NCBI GenBank assembly: GCA_011605725.1
Contig: JAAOZP010000010.1
Span: forward strand, 1-64,000
DNA length: 64,000 bases
Origin: Nitrososphaerota archaeon
GTDB lineage: Archaea; Thermoproteota; EX4484-205; JAAOZP01
Direction: 5' to 3'
The position numbers and the translations under genes were made by a program. The notes below the pieces were generated by a model that saw only the letters and a program-made list of their open reading frames with translations, was not told the DNA's origin and ran no database searches. Numbering within the stretch: position 1 is the stretch's first letter; every line of letters starts with the position of its first letter. Below are positions 1 through 12,853 of the stretch, piece after piece.

Positions 1-1454
1 CTCTTCTCCATATCAAAAGTAGCATTGGGTATGTAGAACTTAAAGAATAAAGCTTGCCTTCTTTCGTTTTTATCAGGATAAAGCTGCTTTAGCTGATTTG
101 AATCGTACCATGGAAAGTCTCGATTGTAAATTTTATTGCTCCCATTAAGCTGAGGAGCTTTGTTAGAGTACAAATTCCATTGAAGCATCATAAGGTCAAG
201 AACATCACCATCATTAGGCTTAATAATCCTCCCGCTCTTCTCCTTCTCAGCATAGCTTATCCCATACTTAGCATCAAATAGAGACCAAGCGTTAGCTATA
301 ACCTTGCCGTTCAAGCCTTCAAACATCTCAGGATGCTTAATTATTTCGAAACCTGAGTCTTGAATCCTCTTCAAATGCTCTGCCAAGATCCAAGTATTCC
401 TAGGAACATTGCTCTCAAGAACATAGTTATTTCCATCTATTGAGTAAAAGACTATCGGGCTGAAGTCAGCAATATCCTTGCTGATTTGAGTAGCATTAGT
501 TAAAAGCCAAGCTGAATCCTTATCAAGCCTTGGCAAGCCTTTCTCGTAAGCTAGAGTTAAGTTGTTAACAGCATGAATAGTTTGAATCATCAGATTTTTC
601 TTAATTAAATTCAAATCCTGATATTCTTTCAATCCTTTCAAGAACAATTCATTTCTATCTGAGCTTATCCTATTGTCTCTCTGAAATTGATCGTAAACAA
701 TTTTTACTAAAGTAGAATTAGCAGAGTAAGCTGGCAATACTAGTGTATAATTCTTAGCAAACTGTGGAAAATCTTTTAGAAAGTTTAACCCATCATACCC
801 ATTGCTATTAGCGAAATAAAGGTAATCCAAGCTGTCTTTCAAACTACCAAAAATTTTCAAGCTCTCTTCAGCCAAAGCTTTATCTTTAGCCCAAGATTTA
901 GCAAAATCAACCCAGGTAGAGTTTCCATTCTGCTTAGGATAACTAGCTATGAACTCTTCAGCCTGCTCATCGCTAAGACCAGCCTGCTTGTAAGGCTTCT
1001 TAGCTTCTTCTTTCTTCTGATTCTCCAAATGCTTGTAAACCAAATAGCTTCCTACAGCTGCGCTTGTAACTAAGCCAAGAAAAGCAATGGCTTTAACATG
1101 CTTAGAGTACAAACCCTCTTTTTTACCAACTTCTTTCCTTAAAGCTCTTATCTTTTCCCTAAGCTCACCTTCGCAAACTTTCTCCAAATCTTTAAGAGCA
1201 AAATAAATCTCTTCCCTCCTCAATCCTTTAACATAAAGCTCTTCTATGAAATCCTCATAATTCTCAACCCTTGCTTTTCTCCTTTTCAGAAAACCATTTT
1301 CAAACTTAACATTAACCCTATCAAAGTTAGAAAGAACGTTAAGCTTAGCTTTAGCTTGAGCAATCTTCTTCTCAGCACCAAGCTCAACAGTGCTTTTGTA
1401 AGGAATATAGTCTGAGCTTTTGCCTAAGCTGCCGCCTGATATACCTAGACTCAT
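1..1454 (-). CDS. Membrane-anchored protein, probably glycosylated ectodomain, >484 aa, runs off the window edge (absent from the ORF track)
   Basis: Open frame from ATG at 1454 (MSLGISGGSLGKSSDY...) with no stop to base 1; one hydrophobic segment (AIAFLGLVTSAAVGSYLVY) followed by several N-x-S/T sequons (NST, NYT, NLT, NAT, NGS). Confidence 0.8.
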   Translation of the reverse strand, partial: MSLGISGGSLGKSSDYIPYKSTVELGAEKKIAQAKAKLNVLSNFDRVNVKFENGFLKRRKARVENYEDFIEELYVKGLRREEIYFALKDLEKVCEGELREKIRALRKEVGKKEGLYSKHVKAIAFLGLVTSAAVGSYLVYKHLENQKKEEAKKPYKQAGLSDEQAEEFIASYPKQNGNSTWVDFAKSWAKDKALAEESLKIFGSLKDSLDYLYFANSNGYDGLNFLKDFPQFAKNYTLVLPAYSANSTLVKIVYDQFQRDNRISSDRNELFLKGLKEYQDLNLIKKNLMIQTIHAVNNLTLAYEKGLPRLDKDSAWLLTNATQISKDIADFSPIVFYSIDGNNYVLESNVPRNTWILAEHLKRIQDSGFEIIKHPEMFEGLNGKVIANAWSLFDAKYGISYAEKEKSGRIIKPNDGDVLDLMMLQWNLYSNKAPQLNGSNKIYNRDFPWYDSNQLKQLYPDKNERRQALFFKFYIPNATFDMEK

Positions 1455-1493: not shown

Positions 1494-1883
1494 TTAAACC
1501 ACGAGCTTCTCAAGCTGCTTATAGGCTATGAATATGTCGTTTGAAATCTGGTCTAAATCGATAATTATCACGTCCTTAATAGCTTCAGACTCTAAAAGCT
1601 CCTTCTTCGCTTCCCTTATTCCCTCATGCACAACGCTCTGGACTTCATAGGCAATGCCATTGCTGTAGTCGAAGACATCCACGTAAAGAGTGTTGCCGTT
1701 TATCGAAATAGGTGCTTCAGTGACAAAGCCATAGCCTCTTTCATGGAGAATTCTCCCTATTAAGGCCTTAACTATGAAGTGCTTAACAGACTCGTTTCCA
1801 GAAGGCAAAACCTTATTCTTCTCCCTTAAATCAAAACCTTGCTCCTCTAAATTCCTAACAGTTATGTAGTCCCTCCTCATCAC
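1494..1883 (-). CDS. Small PD-(D/E)xK-family nuclease-like protein (CoiA-like motif)
   Basis: ESxKH...K, TEAP, YVDVF...AYEVQS restriction-endonuclease-like motif pattern. Confidence 0.6.
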   Translation of the reverse strand: MMRRDYITVRNLEEQGFDLREKNKVLPSGNESVKHFIVKALIGRILHERGYGFVTEAPISINGNTLYVDVFDYSNGIAYEVQSVVHEGIREAKKELLESEAIKDVIIIDLDQISNDIFIAYKQLEKLVV

Positions 1884-1985
1884 TTGAGCAAATCATATTG
1901 TTCTTTAAAAAGTATCGGGCATGCTCTTTAGTAGAATTTGCATTTCATAACCTTATTTTGTTAAACATTTTATTCGGAAGCACTA

Positions 1986-1997
1986 TAGCGCGCGCTA
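1986..1997. repeat. Palindrome TAGCGCGCGCTA (GC-core site 1)
   Basis: 12-bp perfect palindrome in AT-rich intergenic DNA. Confidence 0.85.
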
Positions 1998-2033
1998 CGC
2001 ATTTCCAAAATTCTCTATGGTTATTAAGTTTTC

Positions 2034-2267
2034 TTAAATGCGCATTAATTCTTTCATGCGTTTATGACAAATATAACCACGCCACAAACACACAACAATA
2101 ATAACTAGGTAGATTAAAAATCCGATTTGAATGCCCCAGTTAAGAGTACTCGGCTCAGGTATACTAACGATTATACTAATAAGCCCTAGGCATCCAATTA
2201 CAAAGGCGCGTTCTAACCACTTATTTCTCTCTTCTTCTAATTCTTTAATTTTCGAAGGAATTGACAT
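2034..2267 (-). CDS. Small two-TM membrane protein
   Basis: Two hydrophobic helices flanked by charged ends. Confidence 0.65.
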   Translation of the reverse strand: MSIPSKIKELEEERNKWLERAFVIGCLGLISIIVSIPEPSTLNWGIQIGFLIYLVIIVVCLWRGYICHKRMKELMRI

Positions 2268-2323
2268 CTCGCCTTATTTTAACAATAAAACTTAAATTTA
2301 AGTCTTTTGGTGCGTAAGTTGGC

Positions 2324-2728
2324 ATGAGTGTTCCGTATATACCCTTCGAAAGCTTCCTAGACTTTACGGTTAAAGAACATATCAAGTTAGACTGTAAAGA
2401 ATTAGATGAAATAATGTCGAAATATAGCATCGAAAAGGAACTCTGCAATCTCAAAAAGATAGAAAATCTAGATAAATTAATAAGGCGAAATGTAGAGAAA
2501 ATTAGCCTTATATCATACTTTTCAGAACTCTGTTATTTAATTAAGAAGAGAAGCAAGAAGGAGACTGTCTTTAATCAGCTCTTTTTCGAGAATGAAAAGT
2601 TCGAAAAACTAAAGAAAGATTTGTTAGACAAATATAGGGAGAAGGCTGAAGAAGAAGCTATAAACTATGTAGCCTGGACCATAATAAAATTATGTAGCGA
2701 GCTTTTAGAATGGAATGTTCTTATTTAG
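2324..2728 (+). CDS. Hypothetical helical protein
   Basis: 134-aa ORF of protein-like composition; 4-nt stop overlap with the convergent ORF. Confidence 0.55.
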   Translation: MSVPYIPFESFLDFTVKEHIKLDCKELDEIMSKYSIEKELCNLKKIENLDKLIRRNVEKISLISYFSELCYLIKKRSKKETVFNQLFFENEKFEKLKKDLLDKYREKAEEEAINYVAWTIIKLCSELLEWNVLI

Positions 2729-4032
2729 ATTTTGACGTTAAGCATTTTTTCTGCTTTTTCAACACCATATGTCTTGACCAAGGCTTCACGCAAGTTATCA
2801 GCGAAATATTGCTTTATTTTTTCTTTAATGATACCATGTAGATTTTCATAAGATCTGCGTGCTTCTGGAAGAAGAGAAGACTCATTTAGTCTTTCCTCTA
2901 TAGCATCGTCTAAAGGAAGAAGAATATTATCTATCATATACATGTCGAGCTTTAAATCCTTAATACTACTATATACCATTTGTATTTCCTCTGTTGATAG
3001 AGGGATTCCCTTCTCAACCTTCTCTTTAATTCCTGGGATAAGGGTTTCCATAGTTAATATTTCTGTCGATAACTTTAAATATTTTTTGAAAGGAATTGCG
3101 AATCGCTCTTCAAAAGATTCGCATAATAGTTCAAGATAGTTTGGTGGAATAGTAGATTTTAGCATATCAGGAGAGGGATCAATATTGAATGATAATATTT
3201 CGTTTATCCGATCCAAAGTATACTGGGCGCTTGCAGCAGCTACGATGATTGTCAGAATCATTTCTGGATCTTTCTTTTTCTGTAAAAGTTCTTTGACAGG
3301 CTTCCATCTTTCGAAAATCTTTATTTGAGTTGAATTAATAGACAGCTTGCTTGGTGAAAGCAAGAATTCAGGCACTTTTTGACGATGGAGAGAATAGACT
3401 ATATATAACAACGCTGTATATAGCTCATACGCTGAATGTATGTCTTCTGGTTCCACATATTCGGATTCTCCTCTCAAAATAGATATGGCCCTTGCAAGTA
3501 AAAATATTGATGCCCTTTCCTTCTGATATACCGGGAGGCCCGCTTTATCTTTCATCGAGGAAAATTTCTTCCAAAGTTTTTCGTCTTCTTTATAGGCTGC
3601 TCTACTTATCTTGGTTCGTCCAAGATTTTCGAATATATCTTGCACTCTAATTATAGAATCCAGTATTTGATAGAGATAATAAGATTCATAATCGCTGACA
3701 TTTATTCTTCCTATAATTTGCTTAAAAAGCTCGCTTAATGGTAGCAGACTATTTATTTCTTCTATTACGCGGAATTTGTCAACCGTTATTTGGATTAACC
3801 GATTCGATGGTTTAGAGATTATTTTACCCGTAAGCAAATCAATTTCATAAGTTCCAATGGATAATGACGCATTGGTTTTTACACTCTGTATCCAAACCGC
3901 GCATTCTACAATTGTATCTAAAGGAGATACACCGATGTTAACATCTACATTCTTTAGGCTAATATCGAGTGCCTTTCTAATATCGTTTAAAATCATCTCA
4001 ACAATATTCTCACGAGACCAGCCTGCATACAT
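2725..4032 (-). CDS. Hypothetical protein with a stand-alone AAA+ lid-like (MCM/chelatase-type) segment
   Basis: aa ~140-205 KISRAAYKEDEKLW...LPVYQKERASIFLLARAISILRGESEYVEPEDIHSAYEL resembles the MCM lid pattern; no Walker motifs. Confidence 0.6.
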   Translation of the reverse strand: MYAGWSRENIVEMILNDIRKALDISLKNVDVNIGVSPLDTIVECAVWIQSVKTNASLSIGTYEIDLLTGKIISKPSNRLIQITVDKFRVIEEINSLLPLSELFKQIIGRINVSDYESYYLYQILDSIIRVQDIFENLGRTKISRAAYKEDEKLWKKFSSMKDKAGLPVYQKERASIFLLARAISILRGESEYVEPEDIHSAYELYTALLYIVYSLHRQKVPEFLLSPSKLSINSTQIKIFERWKPVKELLQKKKDPEMILTIIVAAASAQYTLDRINEILSFNIDPSPDMLKSTIPPNYLELLCESFEERFAIPFKKYLKLSTEILTMETLIPGIKEKVEKGIPLSTEEIQMVYSSIKDLKLDMYMIDNILLPLDDAIEERLNESSLLPEARRSYENLHGIIKEKIKQYFADNLREALVKTYGVEKAEKMLNVKI

Positions 4033-4533
4033 CTACGTGTATACCTCGGATGGAAATACCACCATTGTCGTGGTTTCTAATACTCCAGGTATTTCCAAGA
4101 TTTTGTTTAGTATACTCTCTAGCTCTTTTAGATCTTTTGCATCAACAGTAAGGATTACATCATAAACACCATAAATTACATCAGCTGTCATTACACCATC
4201 TAGATTTAGTAATGAACTAAATGTAATATCAATTCGACTAGGAATTATTTTCAGGAATATAAATGCATACGGTTCCTTCTTCAATGGCCTTGGGCTTTCT
4301 TTTGCTACGATAAATGTCTGAATGGCTCTTACCATATTCTCTTCTGCTCCTATTTTGCTTATTGGTTCATGCCATTTTGAGTCAAATTCACTAATAGTGT
4401 TAAACTGATTAACCTTACAGATTATATCAATTTCGCCACAAACCATATATGCACTAGCACCCATGTCTCTAATTTCGTTATGAATTCTTCTATGTGTTCC
4501 AGGCTTAGCTTTTATTCCAATGTATGCCCACAA
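4033..4533 (-). CDS. Tandem Lrp/AsnC ligand-binding (RAM) domain protein without HTH
   Basis: Two repeats: AYIGIKAKPG...VCGEIDIICKV...IQTFIV and AFIFLKIIPS...IYGVYDVILTV...LEIPGVLETTTMVV. Confidence 0.85.
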   Translation of the reverse strand: MWAYIGIKAKPGTHRRIHNEIRDMGASAYMVCGEIDIICKVNQFNTISEFDSKWHEPISKIGAEENMVRAIQTFIVAKESPRPLKKEPYAFIFLKIIPSRIDITFSSLLNLDGVMTADVIYGVYDVILTVDAKDLKELESILNKILEIPGVLETTTMVVFPSEVYT

Positions 4534-4539
4534 CTTTTA

Positions 4540-5037
4540 TCACTTTAATTTATTCCACGCGAATGTATAGATAGGTTCTAAGGGTATTTTCTTCTCCTTA
4601 AATTTTTCTTCTATTTCATCTAGGGCTTTTGCAACTTCTTTAAAGCTTACACCTCGGATTTGTAGTTCTTCGTTGATATATCTTTTATATTCGGAAGTTG
4701 CACGTAGAAGCCTAATTACTTGTACGGAAAAGCGGGCTACAGACATCCCTAGTGGCGTTAAACCGTAAAAACTATTCCGTCCCTCTCTCTGATTAAAGAC
4801 TAATCCGTCTTCTTGCAAAAGGCGCAAAGTATACGTTAAAACGGCACCGTCTGAAATATTGGTGAACTCTGCTATTTGAGAATAGCTCATTACATGATTG
4901 TTCTTTAGCCAACTAGCAAGACATATTAGGACTTTAAGTCTATTATCATCAAACATGATAGGAAAAAATCGTGCCAACACATCCATCGTAGCACTCACTA
5001 TCTTTGCTCTCTTTTCGTCTAGAGCTGCTGACGGCAT
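4540..5037 (-). CDS. Winged-HTH transcriptional regulator (ArsR/HxlR-like)
   Basis: NRLKVLICL...MSYSQIAEFTNISDGAVLTYTLRLLQEDGLV...REGRNSFYGLTPLG. Confidence 0.85.
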   Translation of the reverse strand: MPSAALDEKRAKIVSATMDVLARFFPIMFDDNRLKVLICLASWLKNNHVMSYSQIAEFTNISDGAVLTYTLRLLQEDGLVFNQREGRNSFYGLTPLGMSVARFSVQVIRLLRATSEYKRYINEELQIRGVSFKEVAKALDEIEEKFKEKKIPLEPIYTFAWNKLK

Positions 5038-5111
5038 CTTCTCTTTCCTCCTCCTTCCTCTATTTTTAGAGAAGAGAGGAGTATATAAACTTTTTCTCTT
5101 TGATAGTTATG

Positions 5112-5123
5112 ATAGCGCGCTAT
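5112..5123. repeat. Palindrome ATAGCGCGCTAT (GC-core site 2)
   Basis: 12-bp perfect palindrome; shares TTATGATAGCGCGC with site 4. Confidence 0.85.
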
Positions 5124-5275
5124 TTATTGTTCTTTTGTTCTTTAATAGTACACTTTATGATGTTTTCGCCCATACCTGTCTGGTTTTTCAACTACAAAAG
5201 TTTTGGCTCGCTTCCTTTCAAAAATTGCGCGTTAAAAACTTAAGCTATTTCTTCAAAAATTATTGAAGGAGCATT

Positions 5276-6340
5276 ATGAGCCTACAAGCTTTTTCAGACG
5301 AGTACTTGCCTAAAGCGATAATTGATAGGGAGAATGAGCAGGATGCTATAGCGAGCTACTTAAAAGATATCATGCTGATGAAGACTTCTAAAGTCCTCTA
5401 CATTCATGGTTCTCCAGGAGTTGGCAAGAGCACTGTCGTAAGAGCAGTCTTAAGCCAGTTTGAGGATTCAAACGAAAACTCTGTGGTTGCTCATTTGTCA
5501 TGCACTTCTCTAACTCCATACTTATGCTTGCAGGAGATTCACTCTAAGGTTTGCGGGCAATTGAGTAAAAGGCTTACTTCTCAGGAAATTGTAATGGAAA
5601 TTACGAGAAGACTATTGCTTAAAAAGTATGTTTTGATCGTTGCGTTAGATAATTTCGACAAGATGCAGGATGTTGAGCAGTTATTATGGAGCTTCCACGA
5701 GATCATGCAGAAGGTTCCTAGATTCGGCTTAATTTTGGTTTCAACAAGCAAGTTTGAGCTAATGGATATGGTTGGAGAAAGGCTCTACTCAAGGTTAAGA
5801 CCAGAGGTAATAGAGTTCAAGCCTTATTCAGCTAACAGGCTTTTCGAGATTATGAAGAGCAGGATCTTAGAAGCTTATGGAAAGCCTATTGCAGAGGATA
5901 GTGCTCTTGAGAAGATAGCTGAGTTCGCCGAAGTTAATGGCGGAAGCGCAAGGCATGCTTTAAAAATACTTTTAGATTCAATAGAAGAGGCACAAAGGTT
6001 AGAGTTAAGTAAGGTAAATTCTCAGGTTGTGGAGAAAGTCTTAGAACAAGAGAAGAAGAATCTTCTGTTATCTGAGCTGCATGAACTGAAAGAGGAGGCG
6101 CCGAGAGAATACGAGGTTTTGAAAGTTATAGCTGAGTTAAGCGTAAAAGAGGAAAACATTTACACAGGCTTGGTTGAGGAAGCTGTTAAGGAGAAAGGAC
6201 TTATGGTTTGTAGGCGAAGCTTGGAGTATTACTTGAGCGATTTGGAGAGAAGAGGGTTCCTCAAACTTAATAGCATTAGGATTAATAAAGGCCATTCTAC
6301 TAAAATTGAACTTATCATTCCTAGAGAATCTATTTCATGA
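5276..6340 (+). CDS. cdc6: Cdc6/Orc1-family replication initiator (element-borne)
   Basis: N-terminal FSDEYLP..IIDRENE; Walker A GSPGVGKS; Walker B variant ALDNFD; RLYSRL, FKPYS, GSARHAL sensor 2; C-terminal wHTH; GGAG RBS upstream. Confidence 0.92.
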   Translation: MSLQAFSDEYLPKAIIDRENEQDAIASYLKDIMLMKTSKVLYIHGSPGVGKSTVVRAVLSQFEDSNENSVVAHLSCTSLTPYLCLQEIHSKVCGQLSKRLTSQEIVMEITRRLLLKKYVLIVALDNFDKMQDVEQLLWSFHEIMQKVPRFGLILVSTSKFELMDMVGERLYSRLRPEVIEFKPYSANRLFEIMKSRILEAYGKPIAEDSALEKIAEFAEVNGGSARHALKILLDSIEEAQRLELSKVNSQVVEKVLEQEKKNLLLSELHELKEEAPREYEVLKVIAELSVKEENIYTGLVEEAVKEKGLMVCRRSLEYYLSDLERRGFLKLNSIRINKGHSTKIELIIPRESIS

Positions 6341-6350
6341 TTCGCAATTT
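6287..6350 (+). repeat. Direct repeat copy A = 3' end of cdc6 plus 10 nt
   Basis: 57/64 identical to 8403-8466; 6317-6350 (34 bp) is identical. Confidence 0.95.
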
Positions 6351-6509
6351 TTGCCAAATGGTGCGAGCAGTATCTATGAATATTGCTCATAAGTAACAAG
6401 CATGGATGAAGAGAATGATAATCGAGCGAAGTCCCTTCCAAGGAGCTGGCAGATACTAAAGAAGATTTACTCGAGAAAGAAGCCAGAAGATATTTAAGGC
6501 AAGAAATCA

Positions 6510-6521
6510 ATCGCGCGCGAT
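6510..6521. repeat. Palindrome ATCGCGCGCGAT (GC-core site 3)
   Basis: 12-bp perfect palindrome. Confidence 0.75.
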
Positions 6522-6572
6522 GGAAGTAAATGAAGCTCAGTTTGGAATGATTGGCATGTAGAAGAAACTTAT

Positions 6573-6588
6573 GATAGCGCGCGCTATC
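6573..6588. repeat. Palindrome GATAGCGCGCGCTATC (GC-core site 4)
   Basis: 16-bp perfect palindrome. Confidence 0.9.
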
Positions 6589-6798
6589 GATACCGCTGAT
6601 ATGCATGCCTGTACCAAGCCCACCTGATGACCGCCTCAGACCTGCAGTAAGGACTTCTCTGAGAAGCCAAGTGGCATAGGCCTCGCACGTGAAAAGGATA
6701 AGAAGCTCGGCCAGCATAGAATAGGATCAGGCGAGGTGAGAAATCAACCCTATACCCACCAACAAACTTCCTGATTAAGAGCGAAAATTTTAAATACA

Positions 6799-6806
6799 GC
6801 GCGCGC
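6799..6806. repeat. GCGCGCGC core (GC-core site 5)
   Basis: ACAGCGCGCGCCAC lies just upstream of the 6830 ORF, after a TTTTAAATA TATA-like box. Confidence 0.65.
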
Positions 6807-6829
6807 CACGTAAATTGGAGTAAACGGAC

Positions 6830-7534
6830 TTGGGCTGTAAAGTTATAGTTAGACTTGCCGTGACAACCCTCTTTTTACTTGTGCTGCTAACACTTCCAGC
6901 TGTCGTGTACGCTGCTCCTCAAGTAAGTGGGTATATATCTAGCCCAAGAAACGTGGCGTATGGAAATTCTTTTTCTATTAGCATAACTATCAAGAATAGT
7001 GGTGATAAAACTGCATATTTGTGTAATTTAGTCTTAGGCGTTCCCGCAGGATTTTCGGTATCTAAAACTAATATTTTTATTGGCGATTTAGGCCCAGGTA
7101 AAAGCAAGACATATTCAGTTAGCGTCACCGCACCAAAATATACAACTACAGGTACATTTACCGCAACGGTCTTTTATTCTAATAATCCGGGGGGCAAAGG
7201 TACTTCTTTAGCAGGATACATTTTTCCCTTAACTGTTCAGGTGAAGAGAGGAAATCTGATTACCTTTATGTTAGTTAGCACATCTGGGATACTCAAGAGC
7301 GCGACTATATCAGTTTATGATTCATCTGGGAAGTATGTTGCCGGAGGCGCTGGCATTGCGTCTAGTTCTACAAGTGGTGTCATGATTCAAGTCTATTTGC
7401 TTAATGGTAAGTATATGGTAGCCGCCGCCGGAAAAGTAGATACTCAGCGGGGAGAGAGGAACGCTTTTGGTCAAGCTAATTTTTATGCTGACAAGGATAA
7501 ATCCATACTTATGAACCTAAAGCCTATTCCATAA
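6830..7534 (+). CDS. Secreted or surface protein with an Ig-like (CARDB/NEW3-like) domain
   Basis: Signal peptide ending VYA; FSISITIKNSGD..A...GDLGPGKSKTYSVSVTAP pattern; second beta-rich domain. Confidence 0.75.
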   Translation: MGCKVIVRLAVTTLFLLVLLTLPAVVYAAPQVSGYISSPRNVAYGNSFSISITIKNSGDKTAYLCNLVLGVPAGFSVSKTNIFIGDLGPGKSKTYSVSVTAPKYTTTGTFTATVFYSNNPGGKGTSLAGYIFPLTVQVKRGNLITFMLVSTSGILKSATISVYDSSGKYVAGGAGIASSSTSGVMIQVYLLNGKYMVAAAGKVDTQRGERNAFGQANFYADKDKSILMNLKPIP

Positions 7535-7603
7535 GTTCCTCTGCAATGTGAAATTTGATCGCTCTCTGTATAAGATTTATAAACCAAAGAGAAAATACTT
7601 ATT

Positions 7604-7864
7604 ATGTCAGTTATTGACAAGATATCCAAAGAAAAACTGATAGGTTATTTTGCAGTCCTCTGGGGCGTATCTTTCTTACTTAATGGCGTATCAGGTTTGG
7701 TTTTTAACATCAGAGATATGGTAAATTCGGAAGTCTTTCAGTTATCGGCTTTAGCCAGCACGATAAATATCAGTATCGTAATTGGGTCTTTTCTTGATAT
7801 GCTAATGGGTATCGTATTAGTTGTCTTAGGGTTCAAGATACTGAAGGCCAAAGGTTCTTCATAG
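7604..7864 (+). CDS. Small two-TM membrane protein
   Basis: Two hydrophobic segments; TTTATAAA box upstream. Confidence 0.7.
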   Translation: MSVIDKISKEKLIGYFAVLWGVSFLLNGVSGLVFNIRDMVNSEVFQLSALASTINISIVIGSFLDMLMGIVLVVLGFKILKAKGSS

Positions 7865-8402
7865 GCTATAAAGAAGACCGGAATTATCGACAGACCACAC
7901 ACTCTTAACCCAATTTTCTTTCGCTTCAAAGAATTCTAATCCATGAACTCTACTCGTCTCTATAGACACAATATCATAAGTCTAAAACTTATGAAGCGAT
8001 TCCCGGTTGTATATCACGCCACGGAGATGGCGGGCTTTTAAATTATTTAATCAGGAATAATGTTTTATGGAACATTCGAAATCGATCACTTGACAGAAGC
8101 TCTTGATAAATTTATTCGAAATAATAAGGAAGAAGTGATGCGTCAACTGAAGAAATGCGTTAGGATTTAAAAAATGGGAAACTAACAATTCTATGCTCTC
8201 TATTTTTGCAATCTTTAGATTAGATTTTTACTAGATTAAGGTAGACAATAATCAGTTTCTACTCTCAATGGCGCGCCTGTTTACAATGATGTAGCAAATG
8301 CATACCTATGTGAAGAGACTCATTCCAAAATAACATTGAACAGTTTACTTGTTCATTGCCCTAATTGTCCAAATTGTCAAGAGCCTACCCCCTTGAGTGG
8401 GA

Positions 8403-8466
8403 AAAGGTCATTTAACTCAAATTGAGCTTACTATTCCTAGAGAATCTATTTCATGATTCGCAATTT
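8403..8466 (+). repeat. Direct repeat copy B = displaced cdc6 3' end (KGHLTQIELTIPRESIS*)
   Basis: Same coding frame and stop as the cdc6 C-terminus KGHSTKIELIIPRESIS*. Confidence 0.95.
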
Positions 8467-8519
8467 CTGATTGGAAAAGAGAACGATTTCTTTAGGCTTA
8501 TTAGACTTATGAAAGGAGC

Positions 8520-8624
8520 ATGAGTAGAAATCTTCACGAGCTTGTTGAAAGGATTCACGAATTGTTGAAGCAGGGTTATGAAGAATGGAAGCAGATGGAA
8601 GAAAGAACAAATAAGAATGAGTAG
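8520..8624 (+). CDS. 34-aa small ORF upstream of the integrase (MSRNLHELVERIHELLKQGYEEWKQMEERTNKNE)
   Basis: Preceded by AAGGAGC, the same RBS context as cdc6; amphipathic helix; backbone-like codon style. Confidence 0.5.
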   Translation: MSRNLHELVERIHELLKQGYEEWKQMEERTNKNE

Positions 8625-8671
8625 CTTGTCCCTAAAAACCTAACTATCGCTCATTCTCCCAGGCGGGGCAT

Positions 8672-9895
8672 TTGACCAATAGTTATATAAATAGGGACAA
8701 ACTAATTTTGATCATGGATTTTATTCGTAATTATTCTGAAAAATTTGAAAAGTTTGAGAAAAGGTTGAAAGATATAGAGTTGAGCAGGACGAATAAGCTC
8801 TTGCTCAAAAATTTTTCAGACTATCTGTTAGCGTCAGGAATATCTAAGGGCAGGGTGTTGAAGTATGCCAGCCATTTAATTCACATAGTTAAAATTCTCG
8901 GCAAAGATTTAGATAAGGCTAGTAGAGAGGATTTGATTAAAGTAATCGGAGAGATCGAGAAGAAGAACTATTCTGCTTGGACAAAGCACGATTATAAAGT
9001 TGCTTTGAAAAAGTTCTACAAGTGGCTTAAAGGAGAGCAGGAAGGCAGAGCTTTTACAGACTGGTTTAAGGTTACTGTTAAGAACAACAATAAGAAACTC
9101 CCTGAAGAATTGTTGAGCGTTGAAGATATTGAGAAGCTTGCTTCCGCTTCTTCTAACCTGAGGGATAAGGCTTTTGTTCTGGCTTTGTACGAGAGCGGTG
9201 CAAGGATTGGAGAATTCTTGCCCATAAAGATTAAGCAGGTTGAGTTCGATAGGTATGGGGCTCTGCTTACTCTGCACGGCAAGACTGGCTCTAGGAAGAT
9301 TAGGCTCATAACTTGTGTTCCTGCTTTGATCCAATGGCTTGATTCCCATCCTTGCAAAAACGATAAGGAGGCTTTCGTTTGGGTCAAGGTTAAAGCTAAT
9401 AACGGTAATGAGATTATAACTTATGCTGAGGCATGCAAGATACTTAAGGAATTGGCTAAGAAGGCTGGAATAAGCAAGCCTGTTAACCCGCATCATTTCC
9501 GCCACTCTAGAGCTACTGAGCTAGCTAAACATTTGACTGAAGCACAATTGTGCGAATACTTGGGATGGGTTCAGGGAAGCGATGAGGCAAATACTTACGT
9601 CCATTTAAGCCAGAGAGATATAGAGTCAGCAATACTAAAGCTGCACGGGATAGAGGTTGAAGAAGAGAAGGAGCTTGAGTTCAAGCCGATTGTTTGCCCT
9701 AGATGCAAGAAGCAGAATTCTCCAGGCTCAAAGTTCTGCTCATTATGCGGATTAGCGTTAGACTTGAAATCTGCGATAGAGCTGGACTCAAAGCTTGAAA
9801 GCATGGCTGAGATTTTCGCAAGCTTGCTTGAAGACTCTAAGACTAGGAGGATGATAGTTAGAGAGGCTTTGAGAAAAGGGTTGAAGATAAGGTGA
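8672..9895 (+). CDS. int: Tyrosine recombinase/integrase with C-terminal zinc ribbon (probable start ATG 8714)
   Basis: YESGARIGE (R), GKTG (K), HHFRHSRAT (HxxR), LGW, TYVHL (Y); CPRC...CSLC tail; TTATATAAA box at ~8683. Confidence 0.95.
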   Translation: MTNSYINRDKLILIMDFIRNYSEKFEKFEKRLKDIELSRTNKLLLKNFSDYLLASGISKGRVLKYASHLIHIVKILGKDLDKASREDLIKVIGEIEKKNYSAWTKHDYKVALKKFYKWLKGEQEGRAFTDWFKVTVKNNNKKLPEELLSVEDIEKLASASSNLRDKAFVLALYESGARIGEFLPIKIKQVEFDRYGALLTLHGKTGSRKIRLITCVPALIQWLDSHPCKNDKEAFVWVKVKANNGNEIITYAEACKILKELAKKAGISKPVNPHHFRHSRATELAKHLTEAQLCEYLGWVQGSDEANTYVHLSQRDIESAILKLHGIEVEEEKELEFKPIVCPRCKKQNSPGSKFCSLCGLALDLKSAIELDSKLESMAEIFASLLEDSKTRRMIVREALRKGLKIR

Positions 9896-9958
9896 GTGAA
9901 TTATTTGCTACTCGCATCTTTTTCATGCATTTAAAATCCTTAAAACTCAGAAAAACGA

Positions 9959-11467
9959 TTATAAATTGCCTTCGATAAAGGCTTGGTGATCGTAAACTAG
10001 TTTATATTTGTTCTCTTTCATTTCTACAACTGCTAAGTTCGAAAGGGTTTTCAGAGCTTGAAAAATTTCTTCCTCAGTATATCCTTCTGGCGGCATGTAG
10101 AGGTAAAGCTTGTAAGCTTTTTTAAACCTTGGATCTTGAATTAACTTGTATATTTCATTTACCGGCAGCGGTTTATTTAGGTGTAGGAGTAAAATTTTGA
10201 AAACACATCTTACAGCTCCGGCTTTTCTAAGACGAGTATCTTCTTTGCTTTGTAATTTTTCCTGCGTAAAATCTCTTTGAGGACAGAATAATATTAAATC
10301 CGGTATCTCTTCTTCTGTCAGCTTAGCATCTACTCCGATTTTTTCTAGACAAATATTTAAAGCATGCATCAATCTTTTTCTCGGATTTTCATTTTTCGAC
10401 TTTCTTAGGGCAATCGGAATTTCTGACAAAACACCGGGCCACCTTTTTTCTAAAGAGTTGTACCATAGCATTGCCATTAACTGGCCGTATGGAACAAAAC
10501 CCAGAGCAATGTTTAAATAAGGTTTGAGAGAAGAGTCTGTCGAAGCCTCTCTGAGTGTTAATATATTGACTAATGCATGTTCCAATTCTATGAAGCCTTT
10601 TTCCTCTATGCTTTTGTTAGAATTCTTGTTAATTGATGTTCCAATATTGAGGACTGAGTGAATGACTTCATGTATTAGAACTATTTTCCACAGAAATCCG
10701 AGAAAAAGCGGCCAAAAGTTACAGAAAATGAATACTTTTACTGAATCTTGTTTAATCTTAATAGGCCTTGAGCTTCCAAGTATGTAGGTTATTCCGTTCC
10801 GTCTCCCGCTTATAAGATAGCATAGTATTTTTTCACAAGATATTTTCATTTTTTCTCTTAACCACATCTCACTTAGTTTTAACACGTTTCTATTAAGATC
10901 GTATTTTTCAAACTCTTGTCGTAAAAAATCAAAATGATCATCAATACTCTTGCTCCTGTACCTTTCTATAGTCTCTCTAATAGAACTTAACAACTCATCC
11001 GTGAAAGGGTATTCGTAGTCTAAAAGATCTTCTAATGCTTTTTCTGTTTCAGACTTTTCTAAAAAAGATATTAAGGAGACTAATCTTTTCCCTAAGTAAA
11101 TACTAATGTGTGCTGCATCGCTATGTTTCTGCATAACTTTATCAAAAGATTCTGAGAGCAAGAGTATTGAGTACACGTCAAGGTGAGGGAACTTTACATC
11201 CTTTACCTTATGGAGTTCTCTTAACTTTTCTAGAAAATGCTTTGCTACTTCATCTCTTCTTGAGCTAAAGCGTTTCTCAATCTCCGTAAGGTTGCCGCAA
11301 AAGCATGTGTCAACAATTTTAAACAATTCTTCTCTTTGATCTTGACTGCTCACACGATATAATTCTGCGAATGCCTTTACCGCTAAAGCACATCCATACA
11401 ACTCGGAATCTGGAAGAGCATGAAAAGCGATATCTCTTAAGGAAGAAAGCAACTCGTTCAAAGACAT
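9959..11467 (-). CDS. Putative gluzincin-type HExxH metallopeptidase fused to a C-terminal winged helix
   Basis: IVLIHEVIHS (aa 266-270), downstream ELEHAL Glu ligand; C-terminal LPVNEIYKL...EEIFQALKTLSNLAVVEMKENKYKL wHTH pattern. Confidence 0.6.
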   Translation of the reverse strand: MSLNELLSSLRDIAFHALPDSELYGCALAVKAFAELYRVSSQDQREELFKIVDTCFCGNLTEIEKRFSSRRDEVAKHFLEKLRELHKVKDVKFPHLDVYSILLLSESFDKVMQKHSDAAHISIYLGKRLVSLISFLEKSETEKALEDLLDYEYPFTDELLSSIRETIERYRSKSIDDHFDFLRQEFEKYDLNRNVLKLSEMWLREKMKISCEKILCYLISGRRNGITYILGSSRPIKIKQDSVKVFIFCNFWPLFLGFLWKIVLIHEVIHSVLNIGTSINKNSNKSIEEKGFIELEHALVNILTLREASTDSSLKPYLNIALGFVPYGQLMAMLWYNSLEKRWPGVLSEIPIALRKSKNENPRKRLMHALNICLEKIGVDAKLTEEEIPDLILFCPQRDFTQEKLQSKEDTRLRKAGAVRCVFKILLLHLNKPLPVNEIYKLIQDPRFKKAYKLYLYMPPEGYTEEEIFQALKTLSNLAVVEMKENKYKLVYDHQAFIEGNL

Positions 11468-11481
11468 TTTACTGTTCTAAA

Positions 11482-11769
11482 TTACCACTCAACAGGCTCC
11501 AGGCAATGACGACATATTATTTTAAGGGCTTTTTCCGAATGATGAGTCTCTACAGACTCGCCGTAGGCTGTAGGAGTAACAGGAAAACCGCACTCTGCAC
11601 AAGGAATGCTTTCATGCATAATTTTCTGATAAACCTCTTTCGGTATCTTTCCAGATTTATAATCGTTTTCTAATCTTTCTCTAGCCTCCTTCTCCATTTT
11701 TAACTCACGTTTGTACAAGGCATTAGTAAGTTTTTCAACAAAATCTTCAGCTTTTTCACTCGTTTGCAT
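11482..11769 (-). CDS. Small zinc-finger protein (CAEC...CRHC) with a SHOCT-like helical hairpin
   Basis: Two CxxC pairs; LENDYKSGKIPKEVYQKI; GGAGG RBS upstream; 14 nt from the HExxH gene. Confidence 0.7.
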   Translation of the reverse strand: MQTSEKAEDFVEKLTNALYKRELKMEKEARERLENDYKSGKIPKEVYQKIMHESIPCAECGFPVTPTAYGESVETHHSEKALKIICRHCLEPVEW

Positions 11770-11829
11770 GATGTTTAATCCTCCTTTACCATTATATTTT
11801 TCCCCTTATATTTTTAAACTTTACACTTC

Positions 11830-11851
11830 ACCTACCACATTTTAGGTAGGT
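11830..11851. promoter_or_regulatory. Inverted repeat ACCTACC-N8-GGTAGGT in a divergent promoter
   Basis: Perfect 7-bp arms between the divergent 11769(-) and 11888(+) starts. Confidence 0.45.
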
Positions 11852-11887
11852 AGTAAAGTTTAATTAGGTTGAAAGGAACAACATGGC

Positions 11888-12520
11888 ATGAATAAAGATG
11901 CAGAGCGCAGGATATTACTGCAGAGAGTGTTTTACAAGGATAGAGACCTATATAAAATAGGAAAGTTTGCTGGCATAGCTTGGTTCAACAAATTTGAAGC
12001 AAAATTTGAAAGGGATATATACGCGTATTTTGCTGATGAAGAAAGAAGGGAGGCAGTGGAGAAAATTACTTTAGAAGTTTCTGATGAGAAGTTTATTGAT
12101 GCATTTAATAAAGTGTTCAAAGAGGAGCCAAGGTATATCGAGATCGATAGGTTCATTGGTGAACATTATTATTTTGATGTAAACACAGGACTTAGGCTTG
12201 AGAATAGACAAGAAAATCTTAAGAAGGAAATACGGAGTGCATTGGAGGAAACAGGTAAAAGGGGTTTTTATTTTCTTAAGGCGATTATTGAATTATACAA
12301 GGAGGGTAAATGGGATAAAGCGTACGGTGGAGCCACTTGGGCGGATATACTGGCCAAAATAAGAGAGCTTGGCGGTGAATATCCTGCAGCCCGCGACGTA
12401 GCTCTTCTAAAATCATATAAGATATACTATAAAACCGGAAGCAGAAGATACCCGACGCACACTATCCCTGAAGAAATAATTCCTTTGGTTGAGAAAGTTC
12501 TAAATGAAATGGCAGTCTGA
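11888..12520 (+). CDS. Hypothetical protein, possible C-terminal wHTH
   Basis: 210-aa ORF; GATWADILAKIRELGG...LLKSYKIYYKTGSRRYPTH helix-helix-wing pattern. Confidence 0.65.
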   Translation: MNKDAERRILLQRVFYKDRDLYKIGKFAGIAWFNKFEAKFERDIYAYFADEERREAVEKITLEVSDEKFIDAFNKVFKEEPRYIEIDRFIGEHYYFDVNTGLRLENRQENLKKEIRSALEETGKRGFYFLKAIIELYKEGKWDKAYGGATWADILAKIRELGGEYPAARDVALLKSYKIYYKTGSRRYPTHTIPEEIIPLVEKVLNEMAV

Positions 12521-12741
12521 AATCACAGCCCATACCAATTCATGTAACCCCCACAGTATTTTTACCAAAAGTTATACATGCACCTAATTAAGTGCAAATA
12601 CGCGTGTTTAACCTAAAAAATCCTAGGCTTGAATCCAGCTTGTTGTTCCACGCGTGCTATAACAAGGATTTGTGAAGCATTGTAATTAGCACGATTTTTA
12701 TGCTTAGAAAAGTGATGAACCTCATGATATTTTAAGTTAAG

Positions 12742-12756
12742 ATCCCGGCGACCCCA
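12742..12756 (+). other. Putative attR: tRNA (most like Pro) 3'-end duplicate ATCCCGGCGACCCCA
   Basis: Matches the T-loop end, T-stem and acceptor 3' strand of archaeal tRNA-Pro (..TTCAAATCCCGGCG(G/A)CCCCA); no 5' half upstream; sits at the composition boundary. Confidence 0.8.
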
Positions 12757-12853
12757 TTGCTCCAATCACGGTTTATCGTTCAAACCTCAAGCTTGCTAAG
12801 CTCCTAATATTCTATGCGAAAAGTTTATACGTCTACGTTTTTCTACCTCAACG

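Follow-up and report, generated by a model that had tools for sequence, protein, structure and literature searches.

We analyzed a 64,000-nt window (positions 1 to 64,000 of contig JAAOZP010000010.1) from the genome of a hot-spring Nitrososphaerota archaeon. The first 12.6 kb of this window are AT-rich (33-42% GC, vs ~45% beyond) and are occupied by an integrated element with a Cdc6/Orc1 gene (cdc6), a tyrosine recombinase gene and several orphan genes. The element contains six short palindromes with a GCGCGC core, numbered here as sites 1 to 6. These six palindromes probably belong to a family of mini-palindromes, (T)A(GC)3-5T(A), that is spread over the whole genome and marks joins of unrelated DNA ends in part of the host genus. 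On balance, the motif marks DNA joints, is restricted to part of the lineage and is not maintained by selection, and the best reading of the palindromes is that they are scars or linkers of a joining process of the host lineage. In the following, G000 denotes the genome of the studied DNA (2.23-Mb assembly, 93% complete), and other G and L numbers denote other genomes and related contigs.

GC palindromes in the genome and at DNA joints

The palindrome AGCGCGCGCT is found 88 times in the assembly, and the other palindromes of the form N-GCGCGCGC-N' (TCGCGCGCGA, ACGCGCGCGT, GGCGCGCGCC and TGCGCGCGCA) are found once or twice each. Taken as A(GC)nT with n of 3 or more, the motif occupies 170 genome sites, 67% of them within the 11% of the DNA that is intergenic. 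The initial annotation of this DNA had reasoned that a motif equally common across host intergenic DNA would speak against recombination sites of the element, and in part this is what was found, the 170 copies being mostly intergenic. The copy length n ranges from 3 to 8, and the runs cluster in arrays. A flank bias is present at one position only, with T before and A after the palindrome in 51% of flanks; positions -2 to -12 resemble the intergenic background, and all-against-all comparison of the flanks revealed no repeat family. The spacers that hold the motif are tandem (56), divergent (28) and convergent (27), roughly in proportion to spacer length. Sites thus occur in spacers of all orientations, and therefore they are not promoter parts.

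The distribution of AGCGCGCGCT within the genus is uneven: the 16 other genus genomes hold 118, 70, 33, 32, 18, 16, 6, 3 and 3 copies, and zero copies in seven cases. A reversed-pattern control never exceeded 3 copies in these genomes. In G000, the eight single-transition variants of the motif average 8.5 copies and the sixteen transversion variants average 1.4. Decay of the same kind can be seen within the window. At positions 12650-12700, G000 has CACGCGTGCT and AGCACG where L024, L025 and L062 have CACGCGCGCC and AGCGCG; near-identical strains here differ within GC runs by transitions, C to T and G to A. Because the copies decay by transitions and are lineage-restricted, they are not kept by selection for binding. 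The motif-bearing genomes of the genus are mostly larger, at 2.0-2.3 Mb (the exception is G012, with 1.2 Mb and 70% completeness), and the motif-poor ones mostly have 1.2-1.8 Mb (G010 has 2.0 Mb); several genomes of each group are about equally complete. No description of such a mark was found in a full-text literature search. An unexplained excess of alternating purine-pyrimidine tracts in Thermofilum pendens is recorded in one survey (PMC4060949).

The association of the motif with DNA joints was seen in two comparisons. Within G000, 327 ends of intragenomic repeats were considered, and 28 of them have a GC run no more than 5 nt away; the same holds for 0.44% of positions drawn at random and for 1.8% of those drawn from intergenic DNA. 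The run is present in just one of the two copies at 28 of 29 such repeat boundaries. Typically, gene fragments of 50-200 nt are flanked by GCGCGCGCT, and the full copy elsewhere reads straight through; five fragment copies have runs on both sides. Between strains, the region G000:C4:186-211 kb was compared with six public contigs, each of which encodes an identical copy of a protein from G000:C4:198 kb. Ten of the 15 distinct breakpoints lie within 3 nt of a run, eight of these in one allele only, at a chance level of 1.3% per allele. In two of these cases (D and E), one gene is truncated at different points in G000 and L056, each joint having (GC)4, and L055 carries the uninterrupted sequence. 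As this intact allele has no run at either truncation point, the run is new at the joint. Presence at joints together with absence from the unrearranged allele, as expected of junction filler, is thus observed genome-wide, and within the element for site 1 only.

The region G000:C4:186000-211000 is a toxin-antitoxin island (ParE, PIN, HicAB, MNT/HEPN) that has been reshuffled among six near-identical strains, with most breakpoints marked by GC runs. At G000:C12:18264-18857, a tRNA 3' end (...CCA) is followed by AGCGCGCGC and then by a radA fragment and two fragments of a primase-like gene, which are copies from the radA/primase-like locus at C7:378-380 kb.

All six palindromes in the initial annotation's list are in place (Table 1), and several of its other statements were borne out. 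It had expected fewer than one GCGCGC in the stretch, and base composition predicts 0.26. The sequence that it had noticed in common between sites 2 and 4, TTATGATAGCGCGC, occurs genome-wide only at these two places. As it had said, no palindrome lies inside a credible gene; sites 3 and 4 are covered by a single open reading frame (ORF; 6229-6717, minus strand), for which a search of 1.84 billion representative proteins gave no relative and Pfam no match. Nine of the 12 GCGCGC matches of the window fall within this 6.3 kb (1988-8276). The 12 matches in the whole window compare with 5.15 expected, and one of 100 shuffles reaches that number. The excess over the genome's own intergenic GC-run density (1.08 per kb) is modest, with 6 sites vs 1.97 expected in 1.8 kb of spacer (Poisson P = 0.015).

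Site 1 is a true seam, at which backbone sequence is followed by TAGCGCGCGCTA and then by unrelated DNA. The spacer between cdc6 and the divergent gene for a 129-aa protein is present in two copies, A and B, and a five-gene block sits between them. Copy A (1896-1985) aligned to the spacer of L017 with a score of 46.5; shuffles gave 26.4 +/- 4.4, and none of 500 reached it. Our conclusion on site 1 follows from the point at which copy A stops, which is ~1980, 0-6 nt before the palindrome. Site 1 is present in the block-bearing L024 and absent from the block-less L017 and L062. The other five sites are most simply read as older seams in mosaic accessory DNA.

Cargo modules and strain alleles of the element

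Related elements were gathered by searches with the window DNA and the Cdc6 protein, and those of close strains are 96-99% identical. Four allelic states of the element occur among near-identical strains. The G000 allele has both the five-gene block and a 2.05-kb segment with surface genes. L017 (Ga0272449_1008828) and L062 (ERZ27247226) are without window positions 1896-5205 and have the 2.05-kb segment, with sites 3-6 unchanged. L024 (Ga0496376_000590) and L025 (SRR25522543) have the block and are without 6354-8402; sites 1 and 2 are present in L024, and the L025 contig starts at window position 2629, so that only site 2 is readable there. The more distant backbones L018, L019, L020 and G013:C64 have neither segment, and all six sites lie in DNA that these minimal backbones are missing; the metagenome contigs L018, L019 and L020 hold zero GCGCGC. 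The five-gene block is also absent from G005:C9 and G020:C288. The locus is a clean natural experiment, in that these four states of one integrated element can be compared in near-identical strains.

The cargo modules proposed in the initial annotation are real, as the five-gene block and the 2.05-kb segment are independently present or absent in close strains. That sites 1 and 2 bracket the block is also backed by the strain alleles without it. Sites 5 and 6 do bracket the two surface/membrane genes by position, but no allele shows this pair as a unit; the variable unit around the surface genes is 6354-8402, with sites 3-6 in its interior. The prediction of an empty allele that retains a single site failed, because L017 and L062 join the backbone without any GC run.

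In the element, both recent strain-level gains or losses took place via direct repeats of backbone sequence; the palindromes were not used. The 2.05-kb segment lies between the two copies of a 67-nt direct repeat (6287-6353 and 8403-8469), and alleles without the segment (L024, L025, L018 and G013:C64) have one copy of this repeat. The spacer slot of the five-gene block holds two further, mutually unrelated cargos in L018 and L019, again between spacer copies and without a GC run; therefore cargo exchange at this slot does not need palindromes. Three different cargos share the right breakpoint at the slot. A site-specific attachment (att) reading of the spacer duplication was rejected, as the left spacer copy breaks off at one position in L018 and at another in G000. 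Since cargo turnover runs via backbone direct repeats, those repeats are candidate substrates of the element's integrase, and the 67-nt repeat rather than the palindromes may be the site of gain and loss of the 2.05-kb module. This module was also found as a contig of its own (L063; Logan SRR35211551_91152, 2147 nt, window 6321-8462), whose two ends lie in the same 26 nt of the core of the direct repeat; a repeat-bounded assembly bubble and an excised circle both fit.

The DNA between site 2 and the right junction of the block (5124-5195) has no significant likeness to the backbone, nor has the DNA between sites 3 and 6 and the ends of the 2.05-kb insert. For 1900-1990, 5038-5275, 6341-6835 and 7535-8675, no source was found in the genome (blastn-short and six-frame tblastn) or in 25 genomes of the order. 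The relatives of the 435-aa block protein are its own strain variants only. The CARDB-domain surface gene is 68% identical in L061, and the match is confined to the gene and is therefore uninformative on sites 5 and 6.

A possible joining process and its rivals

A tail-annealing scheme could produce the motif. Each 3' end at a rejoined break, or at a captured or duplicated fragment, would receive a tail A(GC)m. Alternating GC is self-complementary, so that any two tailed ends could anneal; once filled in and ligated, the joint would contain A(GC)nT, with n differing from case to case. We infer this scheme from the form of the motif, and it would account for the palindromic form with its terminal A and T, for the differences in n and for how any two ends could be joined. 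The accessory segments of the element would then be mosaics stitched by a host joining process, and the spacers between sites 3, 4 and 5 would be small captured pieces. We suggest tentatively that a dedicated DNA-joining system of the lineage might write A(GC)nT as a fixed self-complementary linker on broken or captured ends, possibly via an extra primase-like enzyme, and that the element might be its mosaic. If so, any two DNA pieces could be stitched together, which would give archaea a new way of capturing genes and shuffling their genomes. Such a system would point to an end-joining route with a fixed linker, of which no report was found in the full-text literature search. If the mark is written at joints, it would provide a natural barcode of illegitimate recombination, indicating where, and roughly when, a genome was broken, patched or extended with foreign DNA.

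The best candidate for the joining enzyme is an extra primase-like protein of the archaeo-eukaryotic primase (AEP) type (G000:C7:379023-379793), whose AEP motifs DxD and SGxRGFH are intact; a search with the Prim-Pol family PF09250 gave no match. Of the genus genomes, eight have at least 6 motif copies, and seven of these carry the gene or its remnants; the nine with no more than 3 copies all lack it. In gene-less genomes with residual motif, the copies are mostly decayed (decayed to intact, 34:3 in G010 and 16:3 in G013), vs a ratio of 0.5-0.7 in G016, G000 and G002. Searches for an RNA template of the motif, limited to the region around and downstream of the gene, did not locate one: orthologous loci showed no conserved sequence there and folds no better than those of shuffles, and in G000 there is zero GCGCGC within 240 nt of its stop codon. 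Archaeal PriSL is reported to have terminal-transfer and microhomology end-joining activity, which documents end joining in archaea by an AEP primase capable of terminal transfer and strand annealing (PMC12019639).

Several known phenomena resemble the motif in part. Filler DNA and microhomology-mediated end joining, including the archaeal PriSL route (PMC12019639), are alike in the extra joint nucleotides that come from neither partner, in the unrelated ends and in the captured fragments. However, known filler is short and variable, or copied from nearby, whereas here the same self-complementary A(GC)nT is found at many joints and in part of one genus. Telomerase healing, interstitial telomeric repeats and DRT10 (bioRxiv 10.1101/2025.10.16.682844) likewise leave a fixed short sequence with variable repeat number on DNA ends; the telomerase and DRT10 enzymes are RNA-templated reverse transcriptases, and the likeness of A(GC)nT to them is one of outcome only. 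REP/REPIN sequences with RAYT and miniature inverted-repeat transposable elements (MITEs) are also dispersed, multi-copy intergenic palindromes, but the flanks here are conserved at one base only, the palindromes are too short for a stable hairpin and no Y1/RAYT gene was found in the assembly. An origin as MITE, REP or insertion sequence was rejected for want of shared flanks, and PF01797, PF01609 and PF01548 (searched for Y1_Tnp, DDE_Tnp_1 and IS110) were not found in the assembly; the only transposon-related gene found was a 98-aa TnpB-like remnant. The GC clusters of yeast mitochondrial DNA belong to an organelle genome, measure 30-50 nt and fall into defined classes. They are alike as GC-only palindromic islands in AT-rich spacers that are linked with recombination or deletion junctions; the runs here are of 8-12 nt and without a flanking consensus.

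A number of observations weigh against the palindromes as joint marks. Only one of the six sites, site 1, is tied to a demonstrable joint. Sites 2, 3 and 6 lie 70, 157 and 126 nt inside the indel ends, the intervening DNA being without a detectable source, and no donor for any inter-site spacer was found in the genome or in the 25 genomes of the order. The gene calls behind the genome-wide intergenic test were crude longest-ORF calls. In one strain comparison (case A), G000 has a single run where L055 has a run, 243 nt and another run at the same place, a pattern that writing, insertion into a run already there and loss of the DNA between two runs would explain equally well. At 55 nt after the integrase stop, L062 (6331-6340) has CGCGCGCGCC where L018 (~4631-4640) has CGCTGTTATT, with collinear flanks; this 10-nt replacement needs either a break resealed in place or a self-inserting element. 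As to the enzyme, gene and motif may go together as the effect of one clade, because the genomes are related. No second lineage with the primase-like subfamily was found in a 300-genome sample of the phylum, and in G006 and G012 the gene is present with few intact motif copies.

The initial annotation had regarded the palindromes as integron-like cassette sites recombined by the element's tyrosine recombinase. The association with module joints stood, but the specificity to the element and the roles as integrase substrate, insertion target and integron-like site did not, and we consider the integron-like reading extremely unlikely, as it failed each defining test that was run. Like integron attC/attI sites with IntI, the palindromes recur between unrelated modules near a tyrosine recombinase, all six being in accessory DNA within 7 kb of the integrase. 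However, the genome has 170 such sites and one tyrosine recombinase gene, the indel junctions are direct repeats, the empty alleles have no run at the joint and cargo is exchanged in L018 and L019, which have no palindromes. Furthermore, attC sites are imperfect hairpins of 57-141 nt, whereas these are perfect palindromes of 8-16 nt that occur genome-wide and are missing from empty sites. Their unlikeness to attC, already remarked upon in the initial annotation, was confirmed, since their 60-nt contexts fold no better than shuffles (z -1.0 to +1.9), and no inverted repeats flanking the six sites were found. Many run-bounded pieces are gene fragments, unlike integron cassettes. The integrase is not of the IntI type: it scored 40.7 bits against the integron-integrase model TIGR02249 (cut-off 265 bits), and its best likeness is to archaeal XerA (114 bits, cut-off 220 bits). 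The element's tyrosine recombinase is not involved in the palindromes. The number of sites, the unequal lengths of sites 1 and 2 (n=4 vs n=3) and the location of the junctions elsewhere also led us to reject att sites of this recombinase. Protein-binding sites, whether operators of the element's winged helix-turn-helix (wHTH) regulator or of a host factor or a nucleoid-organising site, are very unlikely, although the initial annotation had named operators as its alternative and the motif is palindromic and mostly intergenic, with site 2 located ~20 nt upstream of the wHTH gene's TATA-like box and site 5 directly after another such box. Convergent spacers hold 27 of 111 sites, as their length predicts, seven genomes of the same genus have zero copies, and transition decay, strain differences and n of 3 to 8 do not suit a binding site. 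The wHTH gene is limited to the element, whereas the motif is genome-wide.

Two further readings invoke mobility. It is rather unlikely that A(GC)nT is the preferred target of some integrase or transposase, such that inserted fragments duplicate the run, arrays grow and runs come to bracket cargo. Case A, the five fragment copies with runs on both sides, the arrays and the bracketing of the five-gene block by sites 1 and 2 agree with such a target. However, at the points of run-marked truncation in other strains (cases D and E) the native alleles are run-less, as are the empty alleles L017 and L062, the run is in one copy only at 28 of 29 repeat boundaries, and two runs that flank a block are often unequal, as at sites 1 and 2. 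In addition, no DDE_Tnp_1, Y1 or IS110 transposase and only one tyrosine recombinase was found in the assembly, although at 93% completeness a repeat gene might be missing. We also regard as unlikely a self-inserting GC palindrome of 8-12 nt that spreads in AT-rich spacers and then acts as a fragile break hotspot (Z-DNA or cruciform). Most copies do lie in AT-rich spacers, the preference for T before and A after the motif could represent a TA target, and the difference between L062 and L018 after the integrase agrees with such an insertion. However, runs exactly at new truncation joints, where the native allele is run-less, would remain unexplained, as would the fragments from elsewhere that arrive run-flanked from a run-less source copy. 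We know of no machinery that moves 10 nt, which also counts against self-insertion.

Other features of the element

The contig begins at window base 1, and the left part of the element is therefore missing. The coordinates of the features are given in Table 1.

Table 1. Features of the integrated element and its six palindromes (window coordinates)
Feature	Position	Strand	Remarks
Backbone gene, 129 aa, divergent from cdc6	1494..1883	-	No family match
Spacer copy A	1884..1985		Diverged duplicate of whole 129-aa gene/cdc6 spacer; ends where cdc6 start codon would be
Site 1, TAGCGCGCGCTA	1986-1997		Seam between truncated diverged backbone spacer copy and five-gene block
Five-gene cargo block	1998..5111	- (134-aa gene +)	Indel vs empty alleles ~1896-5205
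Site 2, ATAGCGCGCTAT	5112-5123		~75 nt upstream of wHTH gene start; ~70 nt inside right end of block indel
Spacer copy B, cdc6 promoter/leader	5193..5275	+	Near-identical to single spacer of empty alleles
Element Cdc6/Orc1, backbone	5276..6340	+	Pfam AAA_22, Cdc6_lid; 96-97% identity in L017, L018
Direct repeat copy 1, true 3' end of cdc6	6287..6353	+	Repeat family D1
2.05-kb variable segment	6354..8402	+	Encloses sites 3-6; present or absent between strains
Site 3, ATCGCGCGCGAT	6510-6521		157 nt inside left end of 2.05-kb insert; kept in L017, L062, L063
Site 4, GATAGCGCGCGCTATC	6573-6588		14-nt left flank in common with site 2
Site 5, GCGCGCGC	6799-6806		Immediately after TATA-like box upstream of CARDB-domain gene
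Site 6, GGCGCGCC	8270-8277		Weakest; 126 nt inside right end of 2.05-kb insert
Direct repeat copy 2, remnant of second cdc6 3' end	8403..8469	+	88% identity to copy 1, 34-nt identical core
Tyrosine recombinase with C-terminal zinc ribbon	8672..9895	+	Sole PF00589 match in genome

The five-gene block encodes a 77-aa membrane protein, a 134-aa protein (plus strand), a 435-aa orphan, a stand-alone RAM/AsnC-ligand domain and the wHTH protein. The 2.05-kb segment consists of three gene-less spacers, the CARDB-domain surface protein (6830-7534), an 86-aa membrane protein (7604-7864) and 540 nt of non-coding DNA. The 129-aa gene adjoins the spacer in G005, G020, L017, L018, L019 and L022 as well. In G005:C9 (L014 7279-7720), a nicotinamidase-like gene takes the place of cdc6 after this gene and the spacer (87% identity to the start codon). 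In G020:C288 (L015 207-553), which is from another family, the pair of 129-aa gene and spacer is a decayed remnant and the cdc6 fragment has stop codons.

Rfam and tRNA scans of the window found nothing, and no intact tRNA was detected in it by ARAGORN. A sequence at 12720-12760 (...AGATCCCGGCGACCCCA) is like a tRNA 3' end and is kept in L018 at 5538-5598; it may be a remnant of the attachment site of the whole element. A third variable cargo slot lies between the integrase and the host junction (window 9897-12579). It holds genes for 502, 95 and 210 aa in G000, and four different ones for 612, 102, 308 and 125 aa in L062 (6277-10485), and has ~1 kb in L018 (4577-5537).

A 484-aa open frame at the left edge of the window (3-1454, minus strand) continues off the contig and has 934 aa in L024. 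It had no Pfam or NCBIfam match. The frame belongs to a multi-copy family with members at G000:C19:164199-165231 (91%), C7:437900-438353 and C4:210606-210981, and the C7 copy likewise reaches the end of its contig.

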